DNA of 59,600 nucleotides, filler included, from Stramenopiles sp. TOSAG23-2 (taxonomy: Eukaryota): assembly GCA_900128395.1 (NCBI GenBank). It is 3 parts of 3 records of this genome, joined end to end, with 100 filler letters (N's around TTAATTAATTAA, not from the genome) between each part and the next. Parts side by side here need not be neighbours in the genome. Positions count along the whole stretch, not along the records: positions 1 to 19,855 come from LT649572.1; 2 more parts are not named here. The stretch is one strand, 5' to 3'. Under the pieces are notes generated by a model. It did no database searches and was not told where the DNA came from. It saw nothing but the letters and a program-made list of their open reading frames with translations. This document shows, piece after piece, positions 1-19,955 of this stretch; the first letter of the stretch is position 1, and the number at the start of each line of letters is the position of its first letter. The translations under genes were made by a program, and so were the position numbers.

Positions 1-2934
1 AAGTGGTATCCTGTTGCAATGTTCCTTATAACTAAATTAGTGACAGATACAACTCCAGTTGAATTTGTTACTGAATTATTATTACCATTTACAACAGAAG
101 GTTTGCGTGAAAGTTCTAACCCATTAGAAGCTATACGATTAGTAGAACCGGAGAAATATGCTTATCAATCAAAATTTGTAAATCGTTTTACATATTTTTT
201 TGAACGCTGCGGTTGTCAACGATTTGCAGAGAAAATGGGCAAGGAAATCTTCGTTTCATTGGAATCTACCAAAGCAGATGTGTATAATTTTAATCTAAAA
301 GAAGTTATAGAAGCAGCTAGTTTTCACGGTAACATTGGTGAGAAGAAAGAAACATTGGATAAAATGGCGGCAGGGGAGCAAGCTTTGGTATTCCAAGAGA
401 AGGAAAACGTCCGTAAGGAACTGCAAACGCTTGGAGCTCAATACTTGAAGAAATTTGGTGTAAAATTTCTTGTATCTGCAAAAGGAAAAAGTGGCAAAGA
501 TTTATTATCAATTATGCAACAACGTATTAATAATTCATTTGAAACAGAATTACAAAATGCTAGAATAGCACTATTTGATATTACACGCAAGCGTATGACA
601 AGTGAGCCGTTGGATACAGTCTCAACAGACATTGAAAAATTACGACAAAAATACAATGTCCAAGGTGCATCTGTAGCTTTGTCTCGCAGTGGTGGTGATA
701 ACATACAGACATTATCTTTTGGTAAAGCAAATGAGAGGGACAAAGTTGACGCTAAAACTATGTTTGAAATTGCTTCTTTAAGTAAAACATTTGCATCTGC
801 ATTTGCAATTGAATATTTTGCTAATCGTGGAATACCATTAACAACAAGTGCGAATAAATTATTACGCGATTGTGGATCCTCCTTTCGATTGAGCCACCCA
901 AACAATGTTGAATGGGGCGAACAAGTTAATTTACAACATTTGATGAGTCATAGCGCATTAAACATGCATTATGTTAATGGAGTTCCATTGAATGCAGAGG
1001 AGAATATGCTACCAATTAAAGATTTTTTAAATGGAAATGAAAAATATAGCTATCCAGCTATTGAGGTCTTATCAAAACCAGGGACAGTATTTCATTATAG
1101 TGGTGGTGGCTTCTTAGTTCTGCAACATTTGATAGAATCCTTTGAGAAAAATGATTCTATACAAAATATTATGGAACCATTTCTACGAAAGCTTGGAATC
1201 GCAAATGGAACTTTAACTTTTGAGGGAAAACCAGAAAATGAAAATCAAATTGCACGTGGTTACTTAGATAGTGGTGAAATGTATGGAAATGGTGGCCGTA
1301 AAATGTTTCCTGCCTATCCAGCTGGTGCCTGTGGTACGCCAGAGAGCGTTTTAAAATTATTGCAGCATTTAACTACTGCATATAATGATCCAAATGGCTC
1401 AGGACCAATCTCACATGATACTGCCATCACAATGCTGCATGGGACAGATAAGGGATGTAAGCATTTTATGGGATTGCAAATGGGAGTTGGTGTGTTTGTA
1501 GGCGAGGCACAGCGTAATCGTTTTGCTATTCACCAAGGTGCAAATGATGGTTATCGAGGCGTTTTCCTTCATTGTTTTGCTGGACCAGATAAAGGGACTG
1601 GGTTGGTTATGTTTGCTAATGGCGATAATCATGCAATGTTTTTCATTTCAGAATCCTTACAAATTATTCTGAAAACTTTGAATCTGGAAGGTGTAGACAG
1701 TTCGAAATTCAATGGTGTAAATTTTTCAACTGAAAATATCAAGCAAGAAGAAATAGTCAATTTTGGATACAAAGCGATGGTTTTTCGTGCATTTGAGGAA
1801 GATTTGCCGGAAATAACGGTGCCTCCGTTGTTTACATCGGAATCCTTGGCATTGCATGATGACGCTGCAGTTGTGCCACTTCATGAATTAACAGCATATA
1901 ATGGTGTGGTCGGTGCAAAATTACTTTCCACTACAGATCAAGGATTTGCGCAAGCGGCTAATTTAGTACTGCCAGCAGTTCCGCAATTTGATCCAACATT
2001 ATTTTGTCGCCATGGTAAAGTAATGGATAGTTGGGAGACTGTTCGACATAATGAAAATGAATTTCATGAAGCAATTTTTGAATTAAAAAAAGAAATTACT
2101 GTTCAATATGTGTTAATTTCAACGAAATGGCATTATGGAAATCAAGTGAAACATGTGCAAATATATGTACGCGGCAACGGCGATGGAGATTCATGGGAGG
2201 AATTAATACCAAAAATGAATTTAAATGGACATTCGGAGGTCCGTATAAAGACAGAGAAATCTTTAAAATGTAAACAATTCAAAGTGCTTGGATATCCAGA
2301 TGGTGGATTAACACGAGTGGGTTTGTATGAAGATGCTACGTTACCTGCAAGTGACAAAGCTACATTTGATTCCAAATGTACTAAATGTGAAGAAGCTATT
2401 CCAAAGACTGTTAAACCTATGTCGATTGATTTTAAATTCAACAAGGCTGATGTATTGAGTAATATTTCGAAATTGAATGATGGGGAAACGTATAATATGG
2501 CATCAAGTGCATATGGAGCATCGATTATTTCATGTACGAATGAACATTATGGTTCATCATCACAAACATTATCGCCTTACATGCCATTATCAATGTTTGA
2601 TGGGTTTGAATCCAGTCGCTCCCACGATAGAAGCCATAAAGAAGAAATATGTATACAATTATCTGAATCAAGTCAAATTGATGCTATTGAATTTGACTTT
2701 ACATATTTTGTACATAATAATCCAGTTGCTCTGGAAGTGTATGGCAAATTGCAAAATGAAGGTTCCTTTTCATGGGTTAATTTGGTGAACAAAACTAGCG
2801 TAAAGGAATATGCAGGCAATACACGAAGATTTTCACTTGCCGATAGCGATAAATTTGAAACAGATCAAATCAAAGTAATGGTATATCCAGATGGTGGATT
2901 TAATCGTATTCGTGTTTTTGGGAAAAAACAGTAA
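1..2934 (+). CDS. 5'-truncated multidomain purine-catabolism fusion: probable malate synthase C-terminal tail + OHCU decarboxylase + beta-lactamase-family serine hydrolase + allantoicase (two repeats)
   Basis: Frame is open from base 1 (KWYPVA precedes the listed Met). OHCU decarboxylase-like segment ~181-600 (FHGNIG, GEQ, YLKKFGVKFLVSAKG, ELQNARIALFDITRKRM). Serine hydrolase ~616-1680 (FEIASLSKT with SxxK at 775, LMSHSA, YSGGG at 1096, HQGANDGY at 1531). Allantoicase repeats ~1890-2930 (MDSWET at 2023, YPDGGLTRVGLY, MFDGFES, YPDGGFNRIRVFG). Confidence 0.9.
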   Translation, partial: KWYPVAMFLITKLVTDTTPVEFVTELLLPFTTEGLRESSNPLEAIRLVEPEKYAYQSKFVNRFTYFFERCGCQRFAEKMGKEIFVSLESTKADVYNFNLKEVIEAASFHGNIGEKKETLDKMAAGEQALVFQEKENVRKELQTLGAQYLKKFGVKFLVSAKGKSGKDLLSIMQQRINNSFETELQNARIALFDITRKRMTSEPLDTVSTDIEKLRQKYNVQGASVALSRSGGDNIQTLSFGKANERDKVDAKTMFEIASLSKTFASAFAIEYFANRGIPLTTSANKLLRDCGSSFRLSHPNNVEWGEQVNLQHLMSHSALNMHYVNGVPLNAEENMLPIKDFLNGNEKYSYPAIEVLSKPGTVFHYSGGGFLVLQHLIESFEKNDSIQNIMEPFLRKLGIANGTLTFEGKPENENQIARGYLDSGEMYGNGGRKMFPAYPAGACGTPESVLKLLQHLTTAYNDPNGSGPISHDTAITMLHGTDKGCKHFMGLQMGVGVFVGEAQRNRFAIHQGANDGYRGVFLHCFAGPDKGTGLVMFANGDNHAMFFISESLQIILKTLNLEGVDSSKFNGVNFSTENIKQEEIVNFGYKAMVFRAFEEDLPEITVPPLFTSESLALHDDAAVVPLHELTAYNGVVGAKLLSTTDQGFAQAANLVLPAVPQFDPTLFCRHGKVMDSWETVRHNENEFHEAIFELKKEITVQYVLISTKWHYGNQVKHVQIYVRGNGDGDSWEELIPKMNLNGHSEVRIKTEKSLKCKQFKVLGYPDGGLTRVGLYEDATLPASDKATFDSKCTKCEEAIPKTVKPMSIDFKFNKADVLSNISKLNDGETYNMASSAYGASIISCTNEHYGSSSQTLSPYMPLSMFDGFESSRSHDRSHKEEICIQLSESSQIDAIEFDFTYFVHNNPVALEVYGKLQNEGSFSWVNLVNKTSVKEYAGNTRRFSLADSDKFETDQIKVMVYPDGGFNRIRVFGKKQ

Positions 2935-3467
2935 CAGTACCGTGAGATGTGAGAGGTATCCCCAACATGACTGTGGTAGTCCTTTATATCTATGCTTAAG
3001 ATATTAATTAGTAATTTAAGGATAGCTACATACATGGTCCTATCCGTCTTTTCCGTGATGGCCACTTCGTACTTCTTTTAATATACTAAATATGCTATAA
3101 TTTATCTATCAAATATATATCCCTTCTATAGCAGGTGAATACGATGGAAACCACACAGGTTTTTGATTGGAGGTTGGAGGAAGCCGGAAAGTTTACCTTA
3201 ACCTGTGGTGTAAAACATATTTAAGTTGGAATATATGATGTTTAATCTGATGAATGATGAGCATTGCATGAATACCACCACAGGAATATATCTTTTTTTA
3301 TTTTTTGAAATAAATAAAAACTAAGAAAGTGATTGATGAAAGTATTTAGTAGATAGAAGAATCAAAAGTCCAGTTTATTATTATTTATTAAATTAATATT
3401 ATTATTATTCATTCAATCTAATATAGCAGTAGGGAAAACATATATATATATTATTATTATACAAAAG

Positions 3468-5162
3468 ATGGATGCATTAGCGATTGATTTAGTGCAATAC
3501 AATAGTCCTGCATCATTAAAAATGCGACATAGGCGAAAAACGAAAGGTGGAGGATTGAATCATTCACATAATAAAAGTAGTCGTTTAGGGATAATGCATA
3601 ATCATTTAAATAATCCATTAGAGTTAGAACCTCTTGATAGTACTAGTAATAATATTAATAATAGAAATGTTAATGATGGTATATCACCAACATTTATTGA
3701 TTATGCAGAGGAAGAATTAGAAAATATCAATAATGGTTCTTCTTCCTCTATGAATAGTTCTAATTTATCATCTGGTGGTGGTATTTTAAAAACACCACAA
3801 AAAATGATGAACAAAAACAATAATAATGGTATAAAGCAACCTGTACGTTTTAATTTTAAGCAAGACAGCTTATACATAAACAATAGACCAAGTTTACAAG
3901 GATCGAATCCAAAGTTAGAAGCATTATCCGTCGGTTCAAATGGATTAATGAAAAGCGCATCTACTATCAATCTTTTACAATTTCAACTAGATAAACAAAT
4001 GACGAATAGCGTTTTAAAAAACAATAATGAAAGATTAAAACATATGAATAGTCCACCATCACCGATGCGAAAAGGAAAGCGAAATACAAATGCAACATTA
4101 GCTCTTGGCAAAATTGTTGTTCCAATGATGGATGGGATTGAAAGTATTGTTGATGATGGTTTTCAAAAATGTTTTGAACGTCGTAGTGAACCATCATGGA
4201 ATTATGTTTGGTATTTAGCGATTCCATGGTTTTTTGGTGTGTTGTTTCGTTGGTTCATTTTATTTCCAATACGTTTAGTCTATTGGATTTTAGGTCATAT
4301 TTTATTTATCATTATAAATATCGTTGGTGGTGTATATTTCACATATACAAGAAATCATGAAAAACAGAAAAAGTTCGAGTTGTATTTAGTGAAATGGCTT
4401 GCATATGTTTATGTATCTTCATGGTCGGGGGTTGTACGATTTCATGGGGAAAAGCCAAGGTTGCAAAAGCAAGTGTTTGTTGCAAATCATTCAACTATGA
4501 TTGATGTTGCTATTTTATTACAAAATAATATTTATAGTTTAGTTGGGCAAGCACATAAATCATATTATGTCAATTTAGTACAAAATGTTGCTATGAGGAG
4601 TATGGATTGCATATGGTTTAATCGTGATGAAACGAGAGATAGAACTAAAGTCAGCAAGCGTCTGAGAGAACATGCACGAAATGTTAATGGTGATTTACAA
4701 CCATTGTTAATTTTTCCAGAAGGTACGTGTGTTAATAATGAATATGTTGTTTTATTTAAAAAAACAGTATTTGATTTGGATGATGATATTGCCATTTGTC
4801 CAATTGCTATTAAATACAATAAATTGTTTTGCGATGCTTATTGGATATCAAGACAAGAATCGTTTTTATTCTATCTTTTTCGTTTAATGCGTTCGTATTG
4901 TTTAGTATGTGATGTTTGGTACATGAATCCTATGTATAGAAAAAAAGGAGAAACCGCTATTGAATTTTCTTGGCGAGTTCAACAAGCAATTGCAGATAAA
5001 GCTGGTTTAGTAAATACAAATTATGATGGATATATGAAATATTGGAAACCAAGTTTACGATATAAACGAGCAAGGCAATTAGCATTTGCAAATCAAATTT
5101 TACCGTCGGATGTACTTGACAATAAAAGAACAATATCAAAATCCAGTAATGGAAGACACTAA
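3468..5162 (+). CDS. GPAT9: ER-type glycerol-3-phosphate acyltransferase (GPAT9 / GPAT3-4 family) with an Asn-rich disordered N-terminal extension
   Basis: IESIVDDGFQKCF..WN segment, TM helices, HxxxxD motif (VANHSTMID), IWFNR, LLIFPEGTCVNN, PIAIKY, VCDVWY. Confidence 0.92.
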   Translation: MDALAIDLVQYNSPASLKMRHRRKTKGGGLNHSHNKSSRLGIMHNHLNNPLELEPLDSTSNNINNRNVNDGISPTFIDYAEEELENINNGSSSSMNSSNLSSGGGILKTPQKMMNKNNNNGIKQPVRFNFKQDSLYINNRPSLQGSNPKLEALSVGSNGLMKSASTINLLQFQLDKQMTNSVLKNNNERLKHMNSPPSPMRKGKRNTNATLALGKIVVPMMDGIESIVDDGFQKCFERRSEPSWNYVWYLAIPWFFGVLFRWFILFPIRLVYWILGHILFIIINIVGGVYFTYTRNHEKQKKFELYLVKWLAYVYVSSWSGVVRFHGEKPRLQKQVFVANHSTMIDVAILLQNNIYSLVGQAHKSYYVNLVQNVAMRSMDCIWFNRDETRDRTKVSKRLREHARNVNGDLQPLLIFPEGTCVNNEYVVLFKKTVFDLDDDIAICPIAIKYNKLFCDAYWISRQESFLFYLFRLMRSYCLVCDVWYMNPMYRKKGETAIEFSWRVQQAIADKAGLVNTNYDGYMKYWKPSLRYKRARQLAFANQILPSDVLDNKRTISKSSNGRH

Positions 5163-5593
5163 AGAATGGGGTGGTGTGTATGTACGTAATATTGATTTTT
5201 AATCGATTTCGTCGTTAGTAGTGTCATCTTTAGCTCTGCGTGTGTGTGTATAATGTGTTTTGATATATATACCAGGTTTTTATATCATACGTATTTTTTT
5301 CGAGGCGAGAGCATTTGCTTTTTTGTCAACATTTTTGCACATATTTGGTAATATTTAAATCAATTTTTTCGAAACTAAAATCATATGAAATACGAGTAAC
5401 ATTTTTTATAAATGCATAATTTAATCGCTGTAAGAAGAAGCGTAAAAAATTACGAAGCGTGTAAAAAAATACGATTTCGTATCATATGATAGTTCCTTTC
5501 AAATTACACGCGCGCACCCCTCTCACTCTTTCTTTTTCATTTGAAACACACCATAATACGTATACGTACGAGGCGTATATATTATCAACTTTT

Positions 5594-6571
5594 TTACAAT
5601 CTTGCTTTATCTTTATTAATAGATTCAGCGGCCACGTTCCATAATTTTTTTAATTCATATGTAGTGAAATCAATATTTAATTTTAAACCAAAATAAATTT
5701 CAATCATACGTATCCATTCTTCCATTGTTTTTGCTTCTTGAACTACAATCCAATTTAATTGGTTGTCTCCATCTGTATCATTCTTGGTTTCAATTAATTG
5801 ACGTAATTTTGTACCAACTACATGTAATAACACACCACCCTGTGATGTTCGAAAAATAGATGGCTTATAAAAAGGACTTGTTTCTTTTGCATCATGATAC
5901 CAAATATGTTTTTCTAAAAATGCTGTATGATATGCCTCCATCGTATTATCAATTGGGTCAATTTCAAAATCCAGACCTTCGAAAACTGCATTTGGATGAT
6001 TATACCACCTCCACACAACGTTATCAATTTTATTCAATTTATACTTCCTACCGTCTACTAGTCGCCATTCTATACTATCATTGTTTGGTAATTCAAATGG
6101 TAAGTTTGGTCCATCCCCTAAACCAACATCAACAACAAATTTTTTATTATCTATATGTACAACGCAGACAACATGATTAGTTGATTGTTTTACACTTGCA
6201 GATTCTGCTTCTCGCCAAGTTAAGTCCAATCTATCCTTTATAGCACTGCAATATCCTCTATGCAATGTAACTTTATAACCAAGACTAGAGAGCAATGACG
6301 AAAATGCACCAACTAATAGAAAACAATATCCACCACGTGAGCGGTCCAATAATCGATTGACTAAATCTATTTTTAATAAGGATTGTGGATTTTTCCTTGA
6401 GGCTACATCTAATGCTTCATATGGATATGTATTGAGATGGGATTGAAAAATTTTATTTAATGTTTGATAAGATGGTATCAAAACTTCATCTGGTTTGATT
6501 TTTAATTGTTTTAAATATTTCTGTATGGTAACAACTGGTAACTTTACATTTAATAATTGATTTTTAGACAT
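5594..6571 (-). CDS. Arylamine N-acetyltransferase family protein with C-terminal -ARL
   Basis: PYEAL, RGGYCF (catalytic Cys), NHVVCVV (His) and VDVGLGD (Asp) give the NAT catalytic triad in order. Confidence 0.88.
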   Translation of the reverse strand: MSKNQLLNVKLPVVTIQKYLKQLKIKPDEVLIPSYQTLNKIFQSHLNTYPYEALDVASRKNPQSLLKIDLVNRLLDRSRGGYCFLLVGAFSSLLSSLGYKVTLHRGYCSAIKDRLDLTWREAESASVKQSTNHVVCVVHIDNKKFVVDVGLGDGPNLPFELPNNDSIEWRLVDGRKYKLNKIDNVVWRWYNHPNAVFEGLDFEIDPIDNTMEAYHTAFLEKHIWYHDAKETSPFYKPSIFRTSQGGVLLHVVGTKLRQLIETKNDTDGDNQLNWIVVQEAKTMEEWIRMIEIYFGLKLNIDFTTYELKKLWNVAAESINKDKARL

Positions 6572-6769
6572 GGTGAGAATTAGAATAGTAGTGGATTCAT
6601 GTTATGAAAATTATTATTTTTTTCGTATTTTGTATGTGTATTATGTATATTCTTCTGAAGGGATATAATAAATTAAAATGTAATGGTAATGGTGAGATAA
6701 AAGTTACAAAGTATACATTAAAAAAGAAGAAGAATAAAAAATATTTACTATATACGACACGAACCAATT

Positions 6770-7531
6770 TTATCCAGTTGATACTTCCATGCCACTCATT
6801 AAAAAACTAATTTTATTTAATGTATCTATCGCTTCATTTATAGCTTGTTGGCATTCAATAAATTCCACATTGTTTTTATTATTTGTACATTTAACAACTA
6901 ATGTCCCTTGTTCATTTGACATACGTTGTACTAATATTCGTATTTTCGGAGTTGGATCCAACCAAATTTGATTCATGGTATCACCAGCAGCTGCCATCAT
7001 ATCATTCGCAACACTTTTCAATGCTTGTAAATTTGCTTTGAAACCTATTTGATCTATATCTTTTGTTGTATATGTAACTTGTGAATCGCTGGTGACCAAT
7101 ACGGCTAATTGTATGCCCCGACTATCTTGTAATTTTCCCAATGTTGGTGCTATTGCACTACGAATAGTTTCTGGTATTTTAAATTGAAAATCTTCGAAAT
7201 CTTTTAAATTAGTACCAATATTATTTTTTAAGTCTTTGGAATAAGTGGAAAAAAATGTGGACAAAATTTGTGTTGCAATCAATTTACCAAACTCAGGTCC
7301 ATCATCTGCACTGTGAAAAATTGCACATGAAATATCTAATGTTGCTACTATCGTTACTGCTACACCTTTTAATTGTATATAGGATACTGGCATACCAGCA
7401 ACATTTTTACTAAATTCTGCAATAGCAGTTAATAATGAACCAATTAATCTTGGTTGACTAACAGATGTTTCATATTCTTTCGAAAACAAGACCAGACCAG
7501 ACGAGGAGACTACCAGGATATTTTTCAGCAT
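6770..7531 (-). CDS. Longin-like N-terminal domain plus possible roadblock-like C-terminal domain, 253 aa
   Basis: N-terminus MLKNILVVSSSGLVLFSKEY...LIGSLLTAIAEFS has the longin beta-beta-alpha pattern. LGKLQDSRGIQLAVLVTSDSQV resembles a roadblock/LC7 start. Fold calls are by eye. Confidence 0.6.
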   Translation of the reverse strand: MLKNILVVSSSGLVLFSKEYETSVSQPRLIGSLLTAIAEFSKNVAGMPVSYIQLKGVAVTIVATLDISCAIFHSADDGPEFGKLIATQILSTFFSTYSKDLKNNIGTNLKDFEDFQFKIPETIRSAIAPTLGKLQDSRGIQLAVLVTSDSQVTYTTKDIDQIGFKANLQALKSVANDMMAAAGDTMNQIWLDPTPKIRILVQRMSNEQGTLVVKCTNNKNNVEFIECQQAINEAIDTLNKISFLMSGMEVSTG

Positions 7532-8466
7532 ATATGTATATTGTTAGGGATGGATGGGTGGGTGGGGGGTGATCACTTATATAAATATATTATCATGTGA
7601 TATGATATGATATGATTGTTCGGATTGATTGTCGATATGCAACATATATGTTGTATAAATAAACAGATGAAGAAGGATTAATAAAATTCTATGATGAGCA
7701 GCTGTTGTATTAGTATACTATATAATACTGGTAATACAGCTTAAAGCTCTGAGCAACCTTGTCCAGCTGTGCCATTTTCGCCAATTATAATATAAGGTAT
7801 AATTGCTTAAATTTTATTTTCCCATTGTCCTTAGTTTTAAATAATTGGCTAAATTTTAAGTTTTGCGTGGGAGGCACTAAAATTAACACACAGGACTATG
7901 GAATCCTACTCGATCCCCTCATAAAATGGGGCTATTTGTAAGAGTTTTGTCCTATATTTCTTTAGTAACAATTACAGTAGTCTTTAGTATATTTACAAAT
8001 TTTAGATTTAGTTAAAAATACAGTATATTGTATAATATATTGACAAATATAGTGGGGTAGTAGTGAAAATGACTATACACATTAAAATATAAATACATGG
8101 TGAAAACGTGATTTTTAAGAACGAGTAGGTGTCAAAATTTAGAACCCCTCCCAAAAAATCCAATGCCATTCCATGGAAAACAAAATTTTAAATAGCATGA
8201 CCATAGCATGAATCTTTTTACATAGCATAGGAATAGCATAGAAACACTACTACAAACACTAATTCATCCATTTTTCCTCTCTTGGGTCCGCCACTACGCC
8301 ACTACTCGATCCCTCCCATAATCAGGCCGTCATCATTATTACCCGTTAATCCCATCTTTATTGCTTCTTTCGTGACACAGACAAACGTTTCTAATCATCA
8401 CATTCGTAATAAACACCACAACTGCATAACGCTTCTACTAGATTTTAAATCCATCCAGATATAGCC

Positions 8467-8799
8467 ATGTGTAAAAAATATTCCAAATATGTCCTAGAAA
8501 TGGACACTAATCCAATCTTTTTAAACTTGGAAAAAGAGAAAAAAATAAAATTTAAAGAAATAATACGGAGATATAGTCATGTATTTAGGAAAACAGTAAC
8601 ACCATTACCTAGGTCGGTGGCAGAGTTTAGGATTGATACAGGTGATGCAAGACCAAGAGTGTCACACCAATACCCACTGCAGAATAAACAAAAAGAAGCA
8701 GTAAAAATTTTTGTAAAGGAAATGTTACAGCAGGGTTTAATTAGACCTTGTTCGTCACCTTGGTCAAGTCCATTGTTGGTGGTATCAAAACCAGATGGT
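8467..8799 (+). mobile_element. Truncated Ty3/gypsy LTR-retrotransposon pol fragment (region just N-terminal to the RT core)
   Basis: FRIDTGDARPRVSHQYPL...VKEMLQQGLIRPCSSPWSSPLLVVSKPDG is the typical gypsy pre-RT block. Homology stops before the expected R.C.DYR.LN motif. Confidence 0.8.
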
Positions 8800-9621
8800 T
8801 ATATTTGGAATTGGCTATATTTGGGCAGGTATATGGCTATATTTGAAATAATCTCAAAGGCCATAATATAATAACAAAAAGTATACATATATACAAACAT
8901 AATACAAATAAGAAAAAGTAACAAAAAGTATACATATATACAAACATAACACAAATATAAAGCAAAAAAAATCAATTAAACAATTAAAATACTTTAGAAA
9001 CGCAATTGAAACAATTATGTCGAGTATAAGAACAACAACAACCCAAAATGGATCAGGTGATCATAAAGCCTTAGAGTAAGGGGAAAAATCTCATCTCCAG
9101 GCATTGGCCTCTTTTCCCTATTCTTTCATTACTCTTTTTTGCTTTGTCTTTTCTCTTCTCCCTATTTAATCTTAATATTGGAAAATTCACGTTTTGCACC
9201 TACATATATATATATATATATATATATATGTTTCCCAGCGCCCCGCTTTATAATAATTCTGGCCAAATATATGGTCTTACTCTCCTCATCCTCATACTAT
9301 GCATCTCCTGCGCTCGTATACAATGCTATTTAGTACTATATGTATTATAACATTCTAAAATAATAACCTTAAAATATTAATAATAAAAATTTAAGGAGAT
9401 TTACAGAAATAACATTCAATCTGTGTTTGTTGTTGGTTATATATATATATACTGTTTCATATAAAATATATATCAATATATCGATAATATAAGTCATCAA
9501 TCTCTTATTTACATTTTTCAACAATAATACTTCTCTGTATTCTATAAATAGATATATATTGTCCATCTTTAGCAAAGAAATTGAATTTTGTTTGAGTAAA
9601 AAAAAAAGAAATATCATCAAA

Positions 9622-10815
9622 ATGCCGTCCATTATATATTATTACACGCATTTATTATTATTATTATTATTATTGATTTTACTAGTTTTAATATCACATG
9701 TGCAATCACTTGTCGTTAATTTAACTCCAAAAACATTTAATACTGTCATACGTAAAAATCAATATGCGCTTATAACATTTTGTGAACCATCTATTGGTCG
9801 TTGTAAAGCATTTATGCCTGAATTTGCAGAGGCAGCAAAGGAGTTAGAAAAGTATAAACCAAAAATACGTTTTGCAAAAATGAATGTTGAAACATATGCT
9901 GAATTTGTTGAAGATAAGGATATATTGAATTATCCAACAATATGGTGGTTTTATAATGGTAAATTTAGCAAAGTATATACAGGTGGCAGAGTGAAAGATA
10001 GTATCGTTGAATGGCTTGTAAAACAAACAAAACAAAATTATGTAAATATAGAAACAATGGATGACTTATCGACATTTAAGTTATTGCATGACGTTGGAAT
10101 TTTTGGCTACTTTCCAGAACAACGATTATCCAATGGAACTGTTGTAAATAATATGAATTTAACCAGATTTAATACAGTTGCACGCAATTTAGAAGTACCA
10201 TTTGGCCGTTTAATAAGCCCTGATGTAATATTAGATGTATTTCATGATAATAAAAAATTATTATTAAATCAAATGGTAGAACAAATGAACGATATTGCAG
10301 ATGTGGAGGTAAATGACAAAAATGATAACAACGACGAGGACAATAATCATAAATTGAAATCAATGATATTATTATATAGACGAGATTTTAAGAAATACAA
10401 TGCAACGTATTTTATAGATCCAATTGAAACATTACAAGAATGGGTATTGAATAATTATTTACCACTTGTTGTTGAATATTCAATGGATACTTCTATTCAA
10501 TTATATAGGACGCATGTTAAATTTCGATTATTTGTTTTATGTGAAAATAATCCTAGTATTTTAGAAGCAATGAGAAAAGCAGCACCATTACATCGTGGAC
10601 AAGTGACATTTATTGCAGTAAAAAAAGATCAAGATCGTTTATTAACATATTTAAATAGTACTAGTGATGATTTTCCATCAGCACATATGACAACAATGCG
10701 TCATTATATTAATCATTATTGGAAATTTGATCGTGAAGATTTTGAAAATCCTGCTGCATATTCAGATTTTATTCAAAGAGCAATGGCAGGAGAATTGGAA
10801 CCTCATTTGTTTTAA
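9622..10815 (+). CDS. Protein disulfide isomerase-like protein (a-b-b' thioredoxin folds) with a non-canonical active site
   Basis: ATG at 9622 (the listed 9559 start is TTG), hydrophobic signal peptide, VVNLTPKTF, FCEPSIGRCKAFMPEFAEAA, YPTIWWF, YTGGR, YLPLVVEY. Confidence 0.85.
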   Translation: MPSIIYYYTHLLLLLLLLILLVLISHVQSLVVNLTPKTFNTVIRKNQYALITFCEPSIGRCKAFMPEFAEAAKELEKYKPKIRFAKMNVETYAEFVEDKDILNYPTIWWFYNGKFSKVYTGGRVKDSIVEWLVKQTKQNYVNIETMDDLSTFKLLHDVGIFGYFPEQRLSNGTVVNNMNLTRFNTVARNLEVPFGRLISPDVILDVFHDNKKLLLNQMVEQMNDIADVEVNDKNDNNDEDNNHKLKSMILLYRRDFKKYNATYFIDPIETLQEWVLNNYLPLVVEYSMDTSIQLYRTHVKFRLFVLCENNPSILEAMRKAAPLHRGQVTFIAVKKDQDRLLTYLNSTSDDFPSAHMTTMRHYINHYWKFDREDFENPAAYSDFIQRAMAGELEPHLF

Positions 10816-11194
10816 AAAAAAAATAAAAAATAAATTGTTGAGGGATAGGGAGGTAGCCTATATTTTTTAACTTTTTACTTTTGTACGAAGTACACACACA
10901 GGAGAGAGTATTTTACACCCCCACAAAATTTATACGGGGGGGAGTATAAATTTTTATTCGCTTTGGTATATAATACGGTGTGTGTACGAAGTACATATTA
11001 ATAATTAATTAAGAAATATTTGTGTTATTTTGAGATACACTCTGGGAGTACACCAACATACCTCTCTACACTACACGGCCCATCGTCTCTCGTCTCATTC
11101 ATTTTTTAAAAAGGTCTCAAATTCCTTCCTATAAGCATATAAGATATTATACGAAATATAAATCAAATAATAATTATACTGACAGAGTGTACCA

Positions 11195-13638
11195 CTACAT
11201 TGTAACATCCAATGCTCCATCAAAACCAGCAAATCTCATATCTATTGAATCGCCTAAACTGCTACTTGTGCTTCTTAAATGTTTTGGTGTTGGTGCCATT
11301 ATATCACTACTATCAATTTCAACGTTTGTGAAATATGATGTATCTTTTGCATCGGTTACATCAGGTACAAATGGAACGACACCTTTTTGAGCACTAAGTT
11401 CTTTCCAATCAATTTCTTGGAAAAAACTTGAATTTTTTATTTCTGCAAAATCATTTTCACTGCCATAACGCTCATTTGGATTTGGTTCAAGTAATTTACG
11501 TATAAATTTCTTTGAAAGTTTTGACATTGCTTCATCTCCTTTTGGCCATTTTATCTCATGGTTTAAAATCTTTTCAAATACTTGATCCGGAGTTTTTGCA
11601 TTAAATGGTGGTACACCAGTAAGCAATTCATAGGTAATAACACCAACGGACCACCAGTCAACTGTAGCATCATGCGGTGCCCCAAGTAAAATTTCTGGTG
11701 CCATATAATCTGGTGTGCCAACCAATCGTTGTCCTTCGGAAGAGCTTGGTCTGCCATTACTATCGATACTACTGGTGGTAGATCGAGGTGTTGACATTTT
11801 TCCTTCATAATTATTACTCGATGAAGTAGATTTTTCTTTCTCCATACTATCATCCTCATCTTCATTATCATTATCGTCCGCATATTTCGATTCTTTCCTT
11901 TTTAACATTCGTTCAATCCTTGGTACCTTGGTCTCACTATTTACATTTGCTATTTTCACTTGTTTACCACTTTTCCCAAGACCAAACTCACTTAATCCAA
12001 AATCAGTTAATTTTATATGACCAGTTCGATCAATCAAAACATTTTCTGGTTTTAAATCACGATGAATGACTCCATTATCATGTAAAAACCCAACTGCTAA
12101 ACTAATTTCAGCGACGTATGGCATTGCAGCATCTTCATCCAAGTAAGATACATTACGTAACAACGCTTGCAAATCGCCACCATTGCAATATTCCATACAT
12201 AAAAATAAAAATGTTCGACTTTGAAATGCTGTATATAACGACACGACAAATGGATGATTGATGCTAGAATGAATTTTACGTTCTGCCAATACTAAATCGA
12301 TATTATTTTTTTGGGACAATTCTGACTTTTTCATAACTTTAATAGCACATAATTTACCTTCTTTCCCATCTTTTTTCTTCTTTGCTCTAGCTAAAAAGAC
12401 TCTACCATATGCACCTTTTCCGATTGGCTTTAATAAATTAAAGTCTTGAATACGTAAACGTTTTTTTCGCAAAAAATCAGTAGCTACGCTTGGCGAGGCA
12501 TATTTTTTTTTATCATTATCATTCATTTTTCTACTTGCTTGTTCATCTGCCATTATTTTTTTTACATGTTCTGCGCGAAATAATTTACGAAAGTGAGATA
12601 AAATAGTCTCATCCTCTTCTACATCTGCATCATTTGTATTACTAATAGCATCATATGAGCGGGGTAATTGAATATCGTTTAATCTTTGTACAGATGCCCA
12701 TAAACGCAAGACATTTGAAATCGCAAATAAAAAAGTAACTGCAGGATTTTTTCGACGTGGAGCAGCTTTACCTTTACCATCTTTTTTGTTTTTCATTTTT
12801 CCAGCAGTTGCAAAAATTGGACGTAAATTTTGCGATGTAGAGACAAATTTTTGCAAATGTGATGATTTTAATTTCCCTGGTGTTAGATTCAAAAATTCAT
12901 CACACATCCTCCCAATTTCCTCAGTTGCTGGATCCATATCATATAACGTTCCTTTTAAAATTCTTAAATCACGATCAGCTTTTTGTTTTGCTATTTCTTG
13001 TTTCTCAGCTAATTCATTTGCTATTTTCATTGCATATCGAAGTTCCTATGATTAATAAAAAAAAAAAAGTGTTGTTTTTGTTAGATAAGATGTGAATAAT
13101 ATATTATTTGCATTTGTGTTTTATATATATATCGATATATAAATATTTGCATCCCTATTTGTCAATAAACAATTTATAAATATATATATCAGGTGTAACT
13201 AACGACTACTCTACACAAAAAGATGGAAGTCTTTCAGAGGTTTAATTTAAGTCTATAATTTTTCATCATTTAATATATATTGTATTATTATTTGTATTGT
13301 AAATTAATAGAGAGAAGTAGTGTATAAATATGATATATATATATATGTGTGTTTGTGTATGTTGGTAAACTTACATTTGGATTACCAGTTTTAAATAATC
13401 TATCATTAACTATTTGTCTACCAGAAGTATGTGATGGAGTCTTGGAACCAAAACTACGATGCCTTGTTGTGCTTGGACCAATAGTATTACTTAAATTATC
13501 ATGACTGGTTTTAATATTCATACCCGACATTTTCTTATTATTATTATTATTATCATTATTTTTCTTATAACCTGCACTACCGTCATTTGATAGTTTCTTT
13601 AAAAATTTTCTTTGATTTGTTGTTGGTGTGTGTGACAT
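11195..13638 (-). CDS. AGC Ser/Thr kinase of the Greatwall/MAST/IRE/Rim15 type; two exons 13638-13375 and 13045-11195, ~704 aa
   Basis: GKGAYGRV, AIKVMKK, HRDLKPEN, DFGLS followed by a long activation-segment insert then LVGTPDYMAPE, DWWSVG, AGC tail (PFVP..DTSYF, FAGF). Phase-0 intron 13374-13046 has GTAAGT, TCTAAC and CATAG, and joins ORF 13288-13638 in frame. Confidence 0.88.
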
Positions 13639-14499
13639 TCTCGTATTTATTTATTACGCAGTATATTCCAAAAGAGAAAAGATCGCGAGGGGGGGTGGGA
13701 GCCACAACACGGTTTTACACTTTACAAAATACAATGTTATGTGAATAATCTCTTTGTACAAAAATTATATTGTATACTACTATTTTCTATTGTTTCATAC
13801 TATTCTTTCTACCACCACCATCACCAGTATAACAAAGTGTTGTTCATTCAATTTGAAAAAAATATATATATATATTTTGTTTGATTGATTGTATAATGGT
13901 ATGCACCTGCTATTAGCATGGATGCTACACGATTCATGATGAGATGAACAAAATAAAAGAAGAAACTGAAACAATGACATTTAGATATCGTTAGTATACC
14001 AATTTTATACTTTTATTATACCTATCTATCATATACTCAAACCCTCGGAAACTCGAGTACTTTTGTACATCTCTCATATACTCAAACCAACTCGAAACTC
14101 AAAGTACTTGTACATCATCTCATATCATATTATATTTTAGTGTACATACTAATACAGTCGATCAGATCTACTAATAACTATCATAGCCTTTTATTTTCAT
14201 ACTCAGTTAGAAAGATTATACATAATTTTAGAAAAGGTGACAGAGCAACAAGGTGGTGGGAAAACTTGGGGAAAAAAGTACACATATGTTGCACATCAAT
14301 ATAGTCTGGTGTAAATATTACGTATATATAACATATTAATACCGAAGTTTTATGATATATATTGTATACCAAGTCGTAACATATATTTATTTTTTTTTAT
14401 TTTATCATTAATAAATAAGAGTCTCATATTTTTATTATATATCATACGAACGGTTCGTATCATATGATTTTTGATGATACACTTTTTCTCTCTGGATTT

Positions 14500-17400
14500 T
14501 CAACCTTTCGTCTCTTCATCGCTACTGGTTTCGTCTTCGCTACTATCCTCCAAAGTTGCTCTAGCATGTTCACTCCCAAGACGTTTATTTTTTTGTAACT
14601 CCTTCAATTTGCGCATTAATTGTATAGATACTAAACTTAACAGTGTTGCTGCTAGTATCGAATATTCCGCCATTTCATATTCCACTGTAATCATATTGGC
14701 ATTACCAGGTGGAAAACTAAAACCGCACGTGCGGGGATCTTCCACGCATAAACCTTCACAATCATCACATTCTTGAATTAACCAAGTATATCCCTTTACA
14801 GTACGCTTTGTCATTTGCTTTTCATCTTGTTGACCAACAACTTTGCATTTTTGTTCGTTGTTCACCGGATTTCCATCAATATCTTTAAATATACGGCGGC
14901 AACGGCCAAAATGCCATTTGTAATCGCCATCTGGTACCTCATCTTTTACGTAATATTTTAAATGCCTACCTTGATGGTGCAATGGAGTATGTCGAAATGC
15001 CCATGGGTTCCCATCTAAATCAGCACCACCTTTTTCCACCCAATATTTACACCATTTTTCACCATCGGGATGGTTAAAACCGAGTTCATTACCGTTGCCA
15101 TCAGTCAAATTCCAAAACCACATCAATCTACCACCAATTTCGCCGCCAAATTGACGAGTTTTTAATTCCCGATATTCTTCTTCAAAAAATGGATAATTAC
15201 GTGCTAACTGATTCATCCTAACAGCAGCAGGTTTTCGAACTTTCAACCCGGCTGGTAAATACCATTCACACGTTCCACTTGTATTTTCATATACCACGCC
15301 CCACAAACATAATGCGAAGGATAGAGACATCATTGGATCCGCGCGTCCATATGAAACGCCAATAATTACAAACGTAAATACCCACAAAACCAATGTGCTC
15401 CATCCTTGTTCAACCCAATCTCCTATGTATAGATATACATAATCAGAAGCACTTACAATGTAATGACTAGTTGATAAAATTGCCATAAATGATACTAATC
15501 CAATATAAAATGACAATGGTAAATGTAAGAGATAAAATTCTAATGGTGACGTGTATTCATTCTTTCTTGAAAGTTTTCTTAAAATACGACGCCATTTAAC
15601 TTCACGTTTTACTTCATCCCAGTGAACATGTTTTTCTAAAAACTCTTCATGCTCACGATCTATATCATCTTGACTAACCTCTGCTATGTATTGGGGAAAT
15701 GCACCGCTTTTTTTATATAATTTCACTAATGAGTAAAGCAATGCATAACATGATAGTAAGGAACACCAATATACTCGAAATAAAAAGAATAATAAAAAGC
15801 ATATGTTGAAGAAACAAGAGTACATGAAGTAATTTCCAATCCCAGTAATCCAGCGTTGATATGCCAGTACAGTAAGTTGCCACTTGTGTAAACGAGGAAT
15901 TTTGATGAATGTATTACACATGGGCAAACGTATGTATTCCCATTCTGTTTGTGGACCACGTATCATCAAAACTTGCTGTAAATCTTTATCTTTTTTTTGA
16001 TGATAGGCCCTGGAGCGTAACAAAGATTCATGCGGAAGCAATTGTATAAGCACCCAGCATCCTATCCATGCATAAATAATGAAAAACATTTTAAAAGTTG
16101 CATGGTGGGGCATAATTGTAAGAGATGCTTTGTACAAGGCAAGGTTCCCTTCTGGTGCATCGAGATCGCGTGCAACTAATCCGCAAGTTCGATGATTCAA
16201 TGGCGGGGTCCCTTTCATTCCAAGCATACGATATCCCCATGGCGCGGCTAATAAATTGATAACGATCATTGCAAAATACAACGTTGCATTGCCAAATTGT
16301 TTCACTACCGTAAATGTGACAACCAAACGTTGCCTCCATAACGGTTTGTAAAACATTCTAATAACTAAAGCGCTTAAAGATGTAATAGAAAGACATGCTA
16401 AAATTGCAGCGAATAAAAACGTGAAAACCATCAGCCAAAAGCTTCCACCCAGTTTCACCTCCGCTGTCAAAACTCCTAAGGATCTATATTGATTCCATTG
16501 TGCAGCGGAAATAGACAAAAAGCACAACGACATTGTTAATCCGAATACTAAATCAGAGCGATAAAATATAATGTACACAGTCAACCAGCTTAAACCAAGA
16601 ACCATGACTATGGCCCATTCAAATTGCCATCCAAAACCATTCCATTCATATTTTTTCAATGCCGAAGCGATAGTCACGACTAAGTTAAAAGACATCCAAG
16701 ACATCATGAACGACAGAGGGGACCATACGAAAATGCGTTCTTTATACGTCAATCGACCAGTTGAACGTACACCAACTTCTAAACGCTTGTATGTAAATGC
16801 AAGCATCGCAACAGCTAATCCAAGTATCATGCTTGCATAAATTAGATATTCATTTTGCCATAACAATAAAAATGTACCAAGTAACATATTATGCATTGCT
16901 ATCGATGTTTCAACACGTGAAATAATACCTTGTTGCGATTTAAGACCGGAAGGTAAACTTAACGTCATGACTAATACGCCGTTTAGAACTATGTAAGTTC
17001 TCCACATACTCATAAAGCTTGTATGTGGGCTTATGTATGTCGTATATTTTCTAAATACATCCCCACATGTCTGCCCACCCAAATAGCTACCCCTTGCAAA
17101 GGTAACTGAAAGTAACATTGCGATGTATGTCAATATGTTTAACATTTGATAAACTTGTCCCATCCAACGTCGAACCACATGTCGTTTTACATCAACATGT
17201 CGCTCAATCCAAATTGGTTGTCGTATAAAATCTGGTAATACAGCAGTAAGGTGAGTGCCGTTGGTCATATTGCTTAAACGTATTAAATAAGCAGTAGTAG
17301 GACGGAGCTCATCCGACTCAGATTGACCTAAAAAAATCGCACATGTATGTATTGCACATTTCAAACCATCCGTTGGAAAATGGTCTAAATATTTTCGACG

Positions 17401-18699
17401 CTGTACATTTACATCAAACAAATGATTTTCTAAAATATCTGGTGGTTCATTACATACAAAGTAAATATGATCTAATTTCTCGTAATTATCTATATCAAAA
17501 ATGTAATCAAATAGGCCATCTTCTAAAGCTGAATGGCCACGAGTCTTTAAATTTCTTAAAAATTCGCAACATTCATCAACATTTTGATCGTTTACCCGGC
17601 GTAGCCCCCGTTTGCTCCAACTGGAAAATGTTGCACCATATACAATCACATCAAAATAACAATATTCACTTAATTGTTCCTTCAATATTCTACATAAATC
17701 CCGTATCATGAATCTAAATCGATCAATTCGTTCATTTTGTGTAGTAACGAATTGAATATCCATATTTGATATGGTTGGTATAACAAAAATCATACGTTTT
17801 CCTTGAATTTTACCAAATATAGCGGATCGTGGATATGTACACATATTAATCAATTTTTTCTCCATTACCTTATGTGCAAATGATCCTTTTTCAAAAAAAA
17901 ATGCTATCTCCAATGCAATCCATCTATTTTCTGTATCTATTAAAAAATCTAACATTTCCTCAAATATTTCAAAACGAGCAGTAACATCTTTAATTCTTTT
18001 TAATAAAAATCCAGTTTCTTTACATGTAAAACCAGTAACATTGTATCGTAATAAATGTAACATTTGAATAAACTTATCTTTCTTGTATATCCATTTCAAC
18101 AACAATTTTGTAGCTTGCTTATGATTCATTATTTCACAATGTGTAGAAACACTTTGTGATACTACAGTTACCTGGTCTGTACTAAACCTAGAATTTTTCA
18201 ACATGGAATCAATTTCACGTACATGTTCCGTCTTTTTAGCTCTTAAATTTCTAACAATCATTGGAGGTATTTTCATGCTATTTTTATCCGGTTCTTTATC
18301 AAATGACATGTCTAATATATATTCTTTTACATATGACCTAGTAGCAACACTGAATATGTTTAATAAAGTGTATTTTTGCTTTACACCTGTTAAACTTAGT
18401 AAAAAAATTTCTAATATTTCAATGCGTTCACTTTCAGTCTTGCATAATTTAGCAAATGTATTGAATTGCTCTATTGAAAAAATTTTAGTTGTACATAGAC
18501 ATCGAAATATTGAAAACTTTTCTCTCAACGTTTCCGCTTTTAATATAATATTCCATATTGATTTCATCTCATCATGCGTCACCAAAGTTGGATGCTTATC
18601 CTTTTCGTTAGATTTAATGTCTTTCTTACGAGCTTTAACTAATACTTTGAATAAGTCATCTGAGTATTTGCCCATAAGGGCTTCCCGCGTAGTAGCCAT
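14500..18699 (-). CDS. 1399-aa protein: helical N-terminal repeats (DUF4476-like), degenerate vWA domain, duplicated multi-TM module (TspO/tryptophan-rich-sensory-like), Cys/Trp-rich loop and a final TM helix
   Basis: Long intact ORF. vWA-like GKRMIFVIPTISNM...FDVIVYG...HIYFVCNEPP. Two homologous TM blocks (ISPHTSFMSMW / IMPHHATFKMF; PLSFMMSW / PLSFYIGL; RSDLVFGL / RADPMMSL). Confidence 0.75.
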   Translation of the reverse strand: MATTREALMGKYSDDLFKVLVKARKKDIKSNEKDKHPTLVTHDEMKSIWNIILKAETLREKFSIFRCLCTTKIFSIEQFNTFAKLCKTESERIEILEIFLLSLTGVKQKYTLLNIFSVATRSYVKEYILDMSFDKEPDKNSMKIPPMIVRNLRAKKTEHVREIDSMLKNSRFSTDQVTVVSQSVSTHCEIMNHKQATKLLLKWIYKKDKFIQMLHLLRYNVTGFTCKETGFLLKRIKDVTARFEIFEEMLDFLIDTENRWIALEIAFFFEKGSFAHKVMEKKLINMCTYPRSAIFGKIQGKRMIFVIPTISNMDIQFVTTQNERIDRFRFMIRDLCRILKEQLSEYCYFDVIVYGATFSSWSKRGLRRVNDQNVDECCEFLRNLKTRGHSALEDGLFDYIFDIDNYEKLDHIYFVCNEPPDILENHLFDVNVQRRKYLDHFPTDGLKCAIHTCAIFLGQSESDELRPTTAYLIRLSNMTNGTHLTAVLPDFIRQPIWIERHVDVKRHVVRRWMGQVYQMLNILTYIAMLLSVTFARGSYLGGQTCGDVFRKYTTYISPHTSFMSMWRTYIVLNGVLVMTLSLPSGLKSQQGIISRVETSIAMHNMLLGTFLLLWQNEYLIYASMILGLAVAMLAFTYKRLEVGVRSTGRLTYKERIFVWSPLSFMMSWMSFNLVVTIASALKKYEWNGFGWQFEWAIVMVLGLSWLTVYIIFYRSDLVFGLTMSLCFLSISAAQWNQYRSLGVLTAEVKLGGSFWLMVFTFLFAAILACLSITSLSALVIRMFYKPLWRQRLVVTFTVVKQFGNATLYFAMIVINLLAAPWGYRMLGMKGTPPLNHRTCGLVARDLDAPEGNLALYKASLTIMPHHATFKMFFIIYAWIGCWVLIQLLPHESLLRSRAYHQKKDKDLQQVLMIRGPQTEWEYIRLPMCNTFIKIPRLHKWQLTVLAYQRWITGIGNYFMYSCFFNICFLLFFLFRVYWCSLLSCYALLYSLVKLYKKSGAFPQYIAEVSQDDIDREHEEFLEKHVHWDEVKREVKWRRILRKLSRKNEYTSPLEFYLLHLPLSFYIGLVSFMAILSTSHYIVSASDYVYLYIGDWVEQGWSTLVLWVFTFVIIGVSYGRADPMMSLSFALCLWGVVYENTSGTCEWYLPAGLKVRKPAAVRMNQLARNYPFFEEEYRELKTRQFGGEIGGRLMWFWNLTDGNGNELGFNHPDGEKWCKYWVEKGGADLDGNPWAFRHTPLHHQGRHLKYYVKDEVPDGDYKWHFGRCRRIFKDIDGNPVNNEQKCKVVGQQDEKQMTKRTVKGYTWLIQECDDCEGLCVEDPRTCGFSFPPGNANMITVEYEMAEYSILAATLLSLVSIQLMRKLKELQKNKRLGSEHARATLEDSSEDETSSDEETKG

Positions 18700-19803
18700 G
18701 ATGAATTACAGGACGCGCTATATGTGTGTGTGTCTTTGTGTGAATGTGTAAAAATTTGGAAACTGGTAATGAAAGAAAGAAATATTCTTGCGTTAAAAAC
18801 ATATGTATATCATCTGTATTTAGTAGTTAGGTTATGTATTTACACTAACTAAAAATGCTGCTGTCACAACAACAACAATAATCATCAAATGAATTTTTTT
18901 TTTGCATTTGCACGTGCACGTTTTTTTGCTCATCCCTAAATTTTTCATCGCTTTTTCTCATGCTATAGCCTGCTATTAATTTATTTTAAGTATATTTGTT
19001 GATCATGTAATATTGTATACAATTCCAGTATCATTATTTCATGTAAATATATATATATATATTCCTTAAATTGTTGTTTTTCATCGGAAGTGCGTTGTCA
19101 CGCTCTGTTTTTGTAAAGTTTAAAAGCTCAAAATCCTGTTGTGCACCCTTCGCTGCCATACTATATGCGAATAGCATAGCGGGGTTTCCTGAGCCGCCTC
19201 GTAGTGCACCCTCTCGAAAGACGAAAGCTTAGTGTCCGTCCATCAGCAAGAAGTATTTTACATGTCGTCGATAAATGTGTCGTTCTGTCCAGCTGGGCCA
19301 GCCCTAAGGCCAGCTGTGTCGCTGTGTCCACCTGTAAAAAAGCAAAAAACTGATTCTGGTGATGTAGAAGGGCTGAGAACTCAGTTGCCAATGCTATTTC
19401 CATGTACGTAAATACCTTGTAAATTCGACGAAGATTCAATTTTTCTTCAAGTGTTGATTTTCGGTCCAATGTATCGACTAAAAACTAGATAATTCCACTC
19501 AAAATACCGCTTAGTATATGGAAAACCATACTTAATACTTTCTTATAAAGTACAATTGTTTGGTTGGATTTCGATTTTTTGTGGTAAGCGCAGAGTTACA
19601 TTTTTAATAACACTATTCACTATAAGAAAAAATATATATTTTTACCCTTGGTCACACAAATAAATTAGTATATAGAAAGAAAAAGAAGGTAACAAAAGAT
19701 TTATGTTTATTGTATGTTGTTTTTATTTTTTAATTCAATTACAAAATAGACACGATATATTATTTCTTAGACGAATAAAGCTAGCTACATACATCAAGTG
19801 TGT

Positions 19804-19838
<35 letters not shown>

Positions 19839-19855
19839 ATCAATATCTTTTTAAA

Positions 19856-19955
19856 NNNNNNNNNNNNNNNNNNNNNNNNNNNNNNNNNNNNNNNNNNNNT
19901 TAATTAATTAANNNNNNNNNNNNNNNNNNNNNNNNNNNNNNNNNNNNNNNNNNNN
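19856..19955. other. Artificial contig-joining linker (N44-TTAATTAATTAA-N44)
   Basis: Exactly 100 nt with a six-frame stop cassette, identical to the linker at 39752-39851. Confidence 0.97.

Follow-up and report, generated by a model that had tools for sequence, protein, structure and literature searches.

A malate synthase-fold domain in a five-module urate-breakdown protein of a marine stramenopile: a candidate ureidoglycolate lyase

Introduction

The stretch of DNA analysed here (the window) comprises 59,600 nucleotides of the genome of Stramenopiles sp. TOSAG23-2 (GCA_900128395.1), in three segments (19855, 19796 and 19749 bp) with N spacers between them. It begins inside a gene: frame +1 is uninterrupted from base 1 to a stop codon at 2932-2934 and encodes 977 amino acids (aa), beginning KWYPVAMF. 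The question raised by this locus is which protein the frame belongs to, and what the part missing from its 5' side does. An earlier reading of the sequence by eye (the original prediction) held that base 1 is a contig edge, that the frame opens with the last helix of malate synthase (MS), and that the full protein uses an MS domain to capture glyoxylate, the end product. We report that the frame is almost certainly the 3' half of a single open reading frame (ORF) for five modules, in which a domain with the fold of malate synthase A (MSA) follows a uricase. Judged from its residues and genomic context, and paralleling an MS-like lyase of animals, this domain is in our preferred reading (probability about 0.55) a ureidoglycolate lyase independent of coenzyme A (CoA).

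Reconstruction of a 1940-residue protein

Window places 1-19855 match contig C1366 from its first base; thus, base 1 is a contig edge, as had been supposed, and in frame +1 no stop codon precedes the methionine listed as the ORF start. Two matches were returned when the organism's own assembly (9146 contigs) was searched with the MS barrel: a malate synthase G (MSG) on contig C1305, and the 1253-bp contig C3796. The latter (L002, minus strand) is open at both ends; its coding sequence covers an MSA barrel and most of the MS_C domain, stopping just before the last helix. C3796 is a contig of the predicted kind, one in which a malate synthase is cut off on its 3' side. Use of a full-length bacterial homolog as query recovered a third contig, C8650, with an ORF (L005 180-1823, + strand) whose initial ATG follows an AT-rich leader; the ORF specifies a complete uricase, then the N-terminal part of the MS-like domain. 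The true 5' end does, therefore, lie off-contig, but the original prediction did not foresee that the N-terminus is a uricase placed ahead of the MS-like domain.

Contigs C8650 and C3796 share a 16-nt overlap. In two of four sequencing runs (X1 and X3), there are contigs that run from C3796 into C8650 sequence. Run X7 gave no match to L002. Record 1 of X1 extends 7843 nt beyond the window-side end of L002, and polyA contigs of X15 overlap parts of L002 (these contigs are no evidence of expression). The last 8 bases of C3796 (L002 1246-1253) differ from the contigs of two runs and from C8650, a mismatch that looks like an assembly artefact. Between C3796 and base 1, the spacing is exactly 5 residues in 113 of the 119 homologs that match both pieces.

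A search for longer proteins returned four, including P0153, a protein of 1940 aa from another assembly. It corresponds to C8650 (aa 1-548, 98.9%), C3796 (544-958, 97.8%), five residues, and the window ORF (964-1940, 99.2%). Two further proteins of 1940 aa are among the 15 listed of the 51 members of its cluster. The modules are, in order, uricase, MSA-like domain, decarboxylase of 2-oxo-4-hydroxy-4-carboxy-5-ureidoimidazoline (OHCU), β-lactamase-fold domain and two allantoicase repeats. The uricase module has two T-fold repeats (PF01014, 140.8 bits versus a cut-off of 25), and its conserved catalytic motifs align with those of solved uricases.

It could be argued that the join is an artefact, with three contigs from different genes or organisms, or that the fusion is bacterial contamination. 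The gene is spread over three contigs, most homologs are bacterial, and C3796 and the window do not overlap: the 14 nt between them are absent from the assembly and the join is read from protein relatives, which counts against the reconstruction. However, complete 1940-aa products are present in other assemblies, and the G+C content at third codon positions of the gene pieces (0.19-0.25) is that of the neighbouring eukaryotic genes (0.20-0.28). In a second species (L108, GC 42%) all modules lie on one 6172-bp contig, with 70-82% identity, and the gene has two spliceosomal (GT-AG) introns. The uricase module also clusters with stramenopile uricases. We regard an artefact as very remote, and largely refuted already. 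In a library clustered at 50% identity, no best stretch among the best 150 of 1983 matches covers both the uricase and MS parts; the 90% library holds one fragment (P0327) that spans them, so the blank is no evidence of absence. On a metagenome contig (L111), the fusion occurs twice, as degraded and inverted copies that spread over several frames.

The fused protein lacks a C-terminal peroxisomal targeting signal type 1 (PTS1) and ends GKKQ (window 2920-2934). Most free stramenopile uricases, by contrast, end SRL or SKL. Urate oxidation may have moved out of the peroxisome in the fusion-bearing lineage. PTS1-like C-terminal tripeptides occur in some other eukaryotic copies with four modules (P0004, P0155).

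The window opens with the end of a malate synthase fold

Similarity to malate synthase could not be detected from the start of the window ORF alone. Neither Pfam nor NCBIfam gave a match within aa 1-60, a hidden Markov model built from 17 canonical MSAs left the first 60 aa unmatched, and aa 1-31, in their best local alignment with Escherichia coli AceB, fall on AceB 22-41, away from the C-terminus. The by-eye resemblance to the AceB C-terminus thus has no statistical standing by itself. It emerges through relatives and a structure model. Of 607 homologs, the best 120 all begin their alignment at window aa 1 or 2 and extend further upstream; none starts at the OHCU decarboxylase, and 116 of them have a precomputed MS Pfam domain. 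Pfam MS_C spans the equivalent stretch in Bdellovibrio sp. HCB337 (P0046, 527-644) and the thraustochytrid Hondaea (P0009, 529-651), and in a multiple alignment aa 1-31 coincide with the last helix of AceB.

An AlphaFold model of residues 323-1018, built from 63 sequences, has a mean predicted local distance difference test (pLDDT) score of 88.8 (for the C3796 piece, a model from a single sequence reached a pLDDT of 36 and was of no use). The best Foldseek match of the model is E. coli MSA (E 1.8e-20), and comparison with structure 3CV2 gives Z 33.2 and an rmsd of 2.9 over 493 aligned residues. Residue 533, the last of AceB, lies at model residue 673. The latter corresponds to window codon 32 (bases 94-96), so that coordinates 1-95 coincide exactly with the end of the MS fold. 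By the model, codons 1-32 are the end of the MSA fold. The claim that an MS-fold domain continues off-contig is therefore borne out by C3796, by the homologs and by fold superposition, and no upstream stop, splice acceptor or unrelated domain was encountered.

The domain shares with MSA (AceB, 3CUZ/3CV2, TIGR01344) the whole fold, the Mg/glyoxylate ligands and the catalytic Arg and Asp. It has a TIM barrel and an MSA-type C-terminal cap domain, without the MSG insertion. It differs from MSA in its long branch, which separates it from canonical MSAs by 2.6 substitutions per site, and in being part of a multi-enzyme chain that does not adjoin isocitrate lyase. The TIGR01344 score is 74.1 bits versus a cut-off of 594.5, for a query consisting of the 417-aa C3796 piece only.

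Active site and acetyl-CoA pocket

An alignment was made of the fusion domains, AceB and 16 canonical MSAs encoded in fusion-bearing genomes. Residues were counted in 104 bacterial-type and 7 eukaryote-clade domains; P0154, P0155 (which is not in the eukaryote clade and retains most of the pocket) and the decayed P0001 and P0002 were left out. The acetyl-CoA pocket of MSA is formed by I94, T95, G96, M102, M330, P369 and C438, with the adenine ring flanked by M102 and P369, according to Bracken et al. (2011; PMC3112382), from which the numbering of catalytic D447 is also taken. Equivalents of E119, R166, E250, D278, W365 and D447 are present in all 104 bacterial-type and all 7 eukaryote-clade domains. 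The numbers of other MSA residues (E250, D278, R166) were checked against the AceB sequence. In P0153, the counterparts of R166, E250, D278 and D447 are R568, E653, D681 and D901, and that of W365 is W771. Three substitutions relative to MSA, R276W, W277H and T95F, occur in all fusions (R276W in 7/7 eukaryote and 104/104 bacterial-type domains).

The CoA side of the site is different in the eukaryote copies. We defined 55 shared invariants as residues found in AceB, in at least 15 of the 16 canonical MSAs and in at least 95% of bacterial-type fusions. Nine of them are lost in at least 4 of the 7 eukaryote copies: P97, K101, N105, Y154, L156, D190, H368, P369 and M445. P97, N105 and the pocket residue M102 are lost in all seven, H368 and M445 in five, and K101 and P369 in four, whereas bacterial-type copies nearly always keep G96-P97, K101, M/L102, N105, H368-P369 and C438. 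P0153 keeps I94, G96, M330 and P369, and carries T95F, M102E, C438N, P97T, N105D and H368Y; the second species likewise has Glu at M102, Thr at P97, Tyr at H368 and Asn at C438. Mean conservation of the MS domain versus the rest of the protein is 71% versus 55% in bacteria and 50% versus 54% in eukaryotes; by this measure, the domain is under relaxed constraint in eukaryotes.

In the closest four-module relatives, P0001 and P0002, of which P0002 shares a cluster with a MAST-4 record, decay of the MS-like domain has gone further: D278, D447 and W365 are missing, as are whole barrel segments, and the downstream modules are conserved. Together with the relaxed constraint throughout the eukaryote clade, these sequences could indicate that the domain is turning into an inactive scaffold, retained for folding or oligomer assembly. 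We consider this improbable. Seven eukaryote copies that have diverged to 50% mean identity retain all catalytic and metal residues, the second species has the same motifs, and neutral decay would not selectively spare such residues.

Genomic context and proposed pathway

We did not identify the lyase AllA in the organism's own assembly, nor in any of the 40 fusion-bearing bacterial genomes examined (from 40 of 77 loci). A second, canonical MS was found in 16 of the 40, and in the same 16 a full-length isocitrate lyase lies beside it on one contig. Given the lack of AllA and this placement of the canonical enzyme, the fused domain appears dedicated to purine breakdown. No MS-family gene other than the fusion was found in the remaining 24 genomes. 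In two of the fusion-bearing bacteria (G007:C4 and G025:C119; L099 and L105), canonical MS and isocitrate lyase lie in one frame of 991 and 969 aa, apparently a fusion of these two enzymes.

The stramenopile encodes a separate MSG on C1305 (L001 421-2870) that scores above its family cut-off and probably has a single 3' intron. A literature search for the MSG residues in contact with CoA yielded none. Isocitrate lyase and urease were not found in the assembly. Also not found were the allantoinases AllB and PuuE, the best allantoinase-like match being a dihydropyrimidinase. The hydrolase of 5-hydroxyisourate (HIU) is a separate gene on contig C698 (L007 1489-1821, + strand). It is tail-to-tail with a gene (L007 2112-3236, - strand) for what looks by eye to be a heme peroxidase with ankyrin repeats, possibly a sink for the H2O2 made by uricase. 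A uricase-peroxidase fusion (P0192) is present in the database.

From these genes and from family knowledge, a route from urate to glyoxylate can be proposed. The uricase domain would convert urate to HIU, the free HIU hydrolase would convert HIU to OHCU, and the OHCU decarboxylase domain would form allantoin. Conversion of allantoin to allantoate is probably carried out by the β-lactamase-fold domain, a candidate allantoinase by elimination (no AllB or PuuE found) and by its place in the pathway. The allantoicase domain would split allantoate into ureidoglycolate plus urea. Finally, the MS-like domain would release glyoxylate and urea from ureidoglycolate, gripping the glycolate half of the substrate at the intact Mg/Arg/Asp site; the acetyl-CoA pocket would no longer be needed. 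The separate MSG would then turn glyoxylate into malate. The eroded pocket, the intact glyoxylate/Mg site, the lack of AllA and the separate MSG together suggest that the domain is more likely to make glyoxylate than to consume it. The original prediction of glyoxylate capture is doubtful, as that reaction would require an acetyl-CoA pocket, and the pocket of this lineage is eroded.

A number of observations weigh against assignment as a lyase. P0153 retains 47 of the 55 invariants, including G96, K101, M330, P369 and the catalytic Asp, so that some malate synthase activity is conceivable. W365, which is altered in the zebrafish lyase, is retained in this fusion. The CoA role of P97, K101, N105, Y154, H368 and M445 is presumed, in part from adjacency in sequence to residues assigned in the literature. 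Bacterial fusions keep the CoA pocket and yet occur without AllA, so a missing AllA alone is no pointer to a lyase; absences from an assembly as fragmented as this one are in any case weak. The dead domains of P0001 and P0002 show that the lineage can do without the activity, and the erosion seen here could be early decay. In addition, a domain of the M20 hydantoinase/carbamoylase family on contig C1833, scoring below the family cut-off, could in principle hydrolyse ureidoglycolate. It is in frame with an amidase-signature domain (L113 49-2196, + strand, incomplete at both ends), and the protein probably functions in pyrimidine or ureide catabolism.

The domain could instead be a true malate synthase that captures purine-derived glyoxylate, like yeast DAL7, with ureidoglycolate decaying spontaneously or via another enzyme. 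Consistent with this are the agreement with MSA along the whole fold, retention of every Mg/glyoxylate/catalytic residue and of the CoA-side residues named above, and the status of the fusion as sole MS-family gene found in 24 of 40 bacterial genomes. Purine clusters can hold genuine MS genes (Dembech et al., 2023; PMC10120013), but the genuine cases in that paper are accompanied by a dedicated lyase, which we did not find here. Acidic residues occupy the adenine and 3'-phosphate positions (M102 and N105, the latter by register), and the genome has an MSG of its own above the family cut-off. We therefore think a true malate synthase unlikely.

A bifunctional domain, with lyase and synthase in one site, is most plausible for the bacterial copies, in which case the eukaryotic copy would have a weak synthase. 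Bacterial fusions combine a CoA pocket with R276W and W277H at the glyoxylate site and a lack of AllA in all 40 genomes, and such an ancestor was proposed by Dembech et al. (PMC10120013). However, both enzymes assayed there were monofunctional, and the CoA pocket is eroded in the present organism; bifunctionality seems to us a doubtful explanation.

A parallel for a ureidoglycolate lyase of this fold is the stand-alone animal enzyme. As described by Dembech et al. (2023; PMC10120013), animal MS-like proteins with the glyoxylate site and without the acetyl-CoA site are ureidoglycolate lyases (UGL). The zebrafish protein (DrMSL/UGL) resembles the fusion domain in using the MSA fold in purine catabolism, in keeping the glyoxylate site, in replacement of R276, in part in degradation of the acetyl-CoA site, and in co-occurrence with allantoicase and uricase. 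The family of the animal enzyme is stand-alone and eukaryote-only, with a PTS1, W365M, a 2-aa insertion and no remaining conservation at the CoA site (PMC10120013). The fusion domain, in contrast, keeps W365, has only partial erosion of the CoA site, lacks a PTS1 and has close relatives in bacteria. The two are probably of separate origin, as far as can be judged from trees that contain no UGL sequences.

Distribution and origin

The source organism is a marine, intron-poor stramenopile whose nearest named relative is labelled MAST-4. Bdellovibrionota commonly carry a four-module core of about 1560 aa, which is present too in some Planctomycetota and Myxococcota, as well as in thraustochytrids, MAST-4, Amoebophrya and other eukaryotes. 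Four-module homologs are 43-57% identical to the whole window ORF, with modules in identical order. As in the five-module protein, the four modules of the Bdellovibrionota type (P0046 and the thraustochytrid P0009) lie in the same order in one ORF, but there is no uricase module; the bacteria keep urate oxidase and HIU hydrolase as neighbouring genes, and also keep the CoA pocket. In the 77 bacterial loci retained (of 147 matches), neighbours include HIU hydrolase (73/77), PuuD-type urate oxidase (54/77) and T-fold uricase (8/77), with xanthine dehydrogenase genes near the fusion in about 20. The 40 commonest neighbours of these loci include no recurrent lyase-like family.

Trees were built with FastTree on subsets, one of 108 rows (P0001-P0060, P0153-P0155 and 52 locus proteins) and another of 50 rows. 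On the downstream modules, nine sequences including P0153 form one clade (Shimodaira-Hasegawa support 1.0); for the eukaryote clade, support in the second tree is 0.988. Its named members are all eukaryotic, and P0003 and P0028 are placed in it by the tree alone. The position of this clade and the root are poorly supported (0.37 and 0.34). From its distribution, the four-module core was likely transferred from a bacterium to a eukaryote; the trees, given their poorly supported root, do not by themselves give the direction.

The fused uricase, the only uricase found in the assembly, joins stramenopile uricases (bootstrap 99-100), with named relatives in Pinguiococcus, Vaucheria and brown algae. 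In one sub-lineage, a host uricase would have been added to the N-terminus of the four-module protein shared with Bdellovibrionota. Acquisition of the uricase with the bacterial operon is rejected, as the uricases that neighbour the bacterial loci show about 30% identity and sit on distant branches.

Joining of consecutive urate-pathway enzymes in one chain is shared with the Urah-Urad allantoin synthase of plants and diatoms (PMC13751858) and with uricase-OHCU decarboxylase fusions such as PucL. Those fusions join two or three early steps, whereas the five-module fusion spans the pathway from first to last step and omits HIU hydrolase; it is the longest urate-pathway fusion found in this analysis. 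Other fusions in the database (P0332, P0333, P0271, P0197, P0224, P0296) are of uricase with HIU hydrolase, of uricase, OHCU decarboxylase and HIU hydrolase, and of uricase with OHCU decarboxylase in both orders.

Other features of the window

Coordinates are collected in Table 1. Genes near the fusion ORF on C1366 encode an acyltransferase, an N-acetyltransferase, a thioredoxin-domain protein and a protein kinase, and are eukaryotic-looking and intron-poor. The product of the arylamine N-acetyltransferase-family gene has a PTS1-like C-terminal tripeptide. The sole match of a large membrane protein encoded further along is weak (DUF4476).

Table 1. Location of features in the window
Feature	Position	Strand	Remarks
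3' half of five-module gene	1..2934	+	977 aa; 5' half off-window on C8650 and C3796
End of MSA-fold C-terminal domain, last two helices (by model)	1..96	+	P0153 residues 964-995; frame enters from contig edge
Internal Met, listed as ORF start	19..21	+	ATG is residue 970 of full protein, not start codon
OHCU decarboxylase domain	262..600	+	aa 88-200 TIGR03180; aa 94-199 PF09349, above Pfam cut-off
β-lactamase-fold serine hydrolase domain	631..1638	+	aa 211-546, PF00144
Two allantoicase repeats	1912..2925	+	aa 638-776 and about 825-975
Arylamine N-acetyltransferase-family gene	5594..6571	-	
Multi-pass membrane protein	14500..18699	-	1399 aa
N spacer	19856..19955		Ends contig C1366; later window segments belong to other contigs

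Conclusions

We found no paper on the five-module fusion in a literature search that was thin on subscription journals. A 2026 review of the pathway (PMC13751858) covers Urah-Urad fusions and, in its accessible part, does not mention Bdellovibrio, stramenopiles or the lactamase fold. New here are a eukaryotic form of five modules, which includes a host uricase and is present in two species, and the finding that the CoA pocket is lost by degrees. A broader scenario, which we offer tentatively and hold at less than even odds, is that, in a clade of marine bacterivorous stramenopiles, a single chain of 1940 residues, made of the clade's own uricase and a bacterial-type core, carries out five of the six steps between urate and glyoxylate. 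In this scenario, the MS fold would be an independently evolved lyase, intermediate between a bacterial form that binds CoA and is possibly bifunctional, on the one side, and dead sister copies, on the other, and the β-lactamase fold would be a third kind of allantoinase.

One domain is thus seen in three states: with the CoA pocket intact (bacteria), with the pocket eroded (this clade and thraustochytrids), and catalytically dead (MAST-4-type relatives). This series makes directly testable the question raised by Dembech et al. (PMC10120013) of how a malate synthase becomes a ureidoglycolate lyase, and whether via a bifunctional intermediate. The results also correct annotation, as databases label such proteins 'malate synthase, glyoxysomal' or 'serine hydrolase'. 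For the organisms themselves, the fusion hints at how abundant marine grazers may recycle the purines of their prey.

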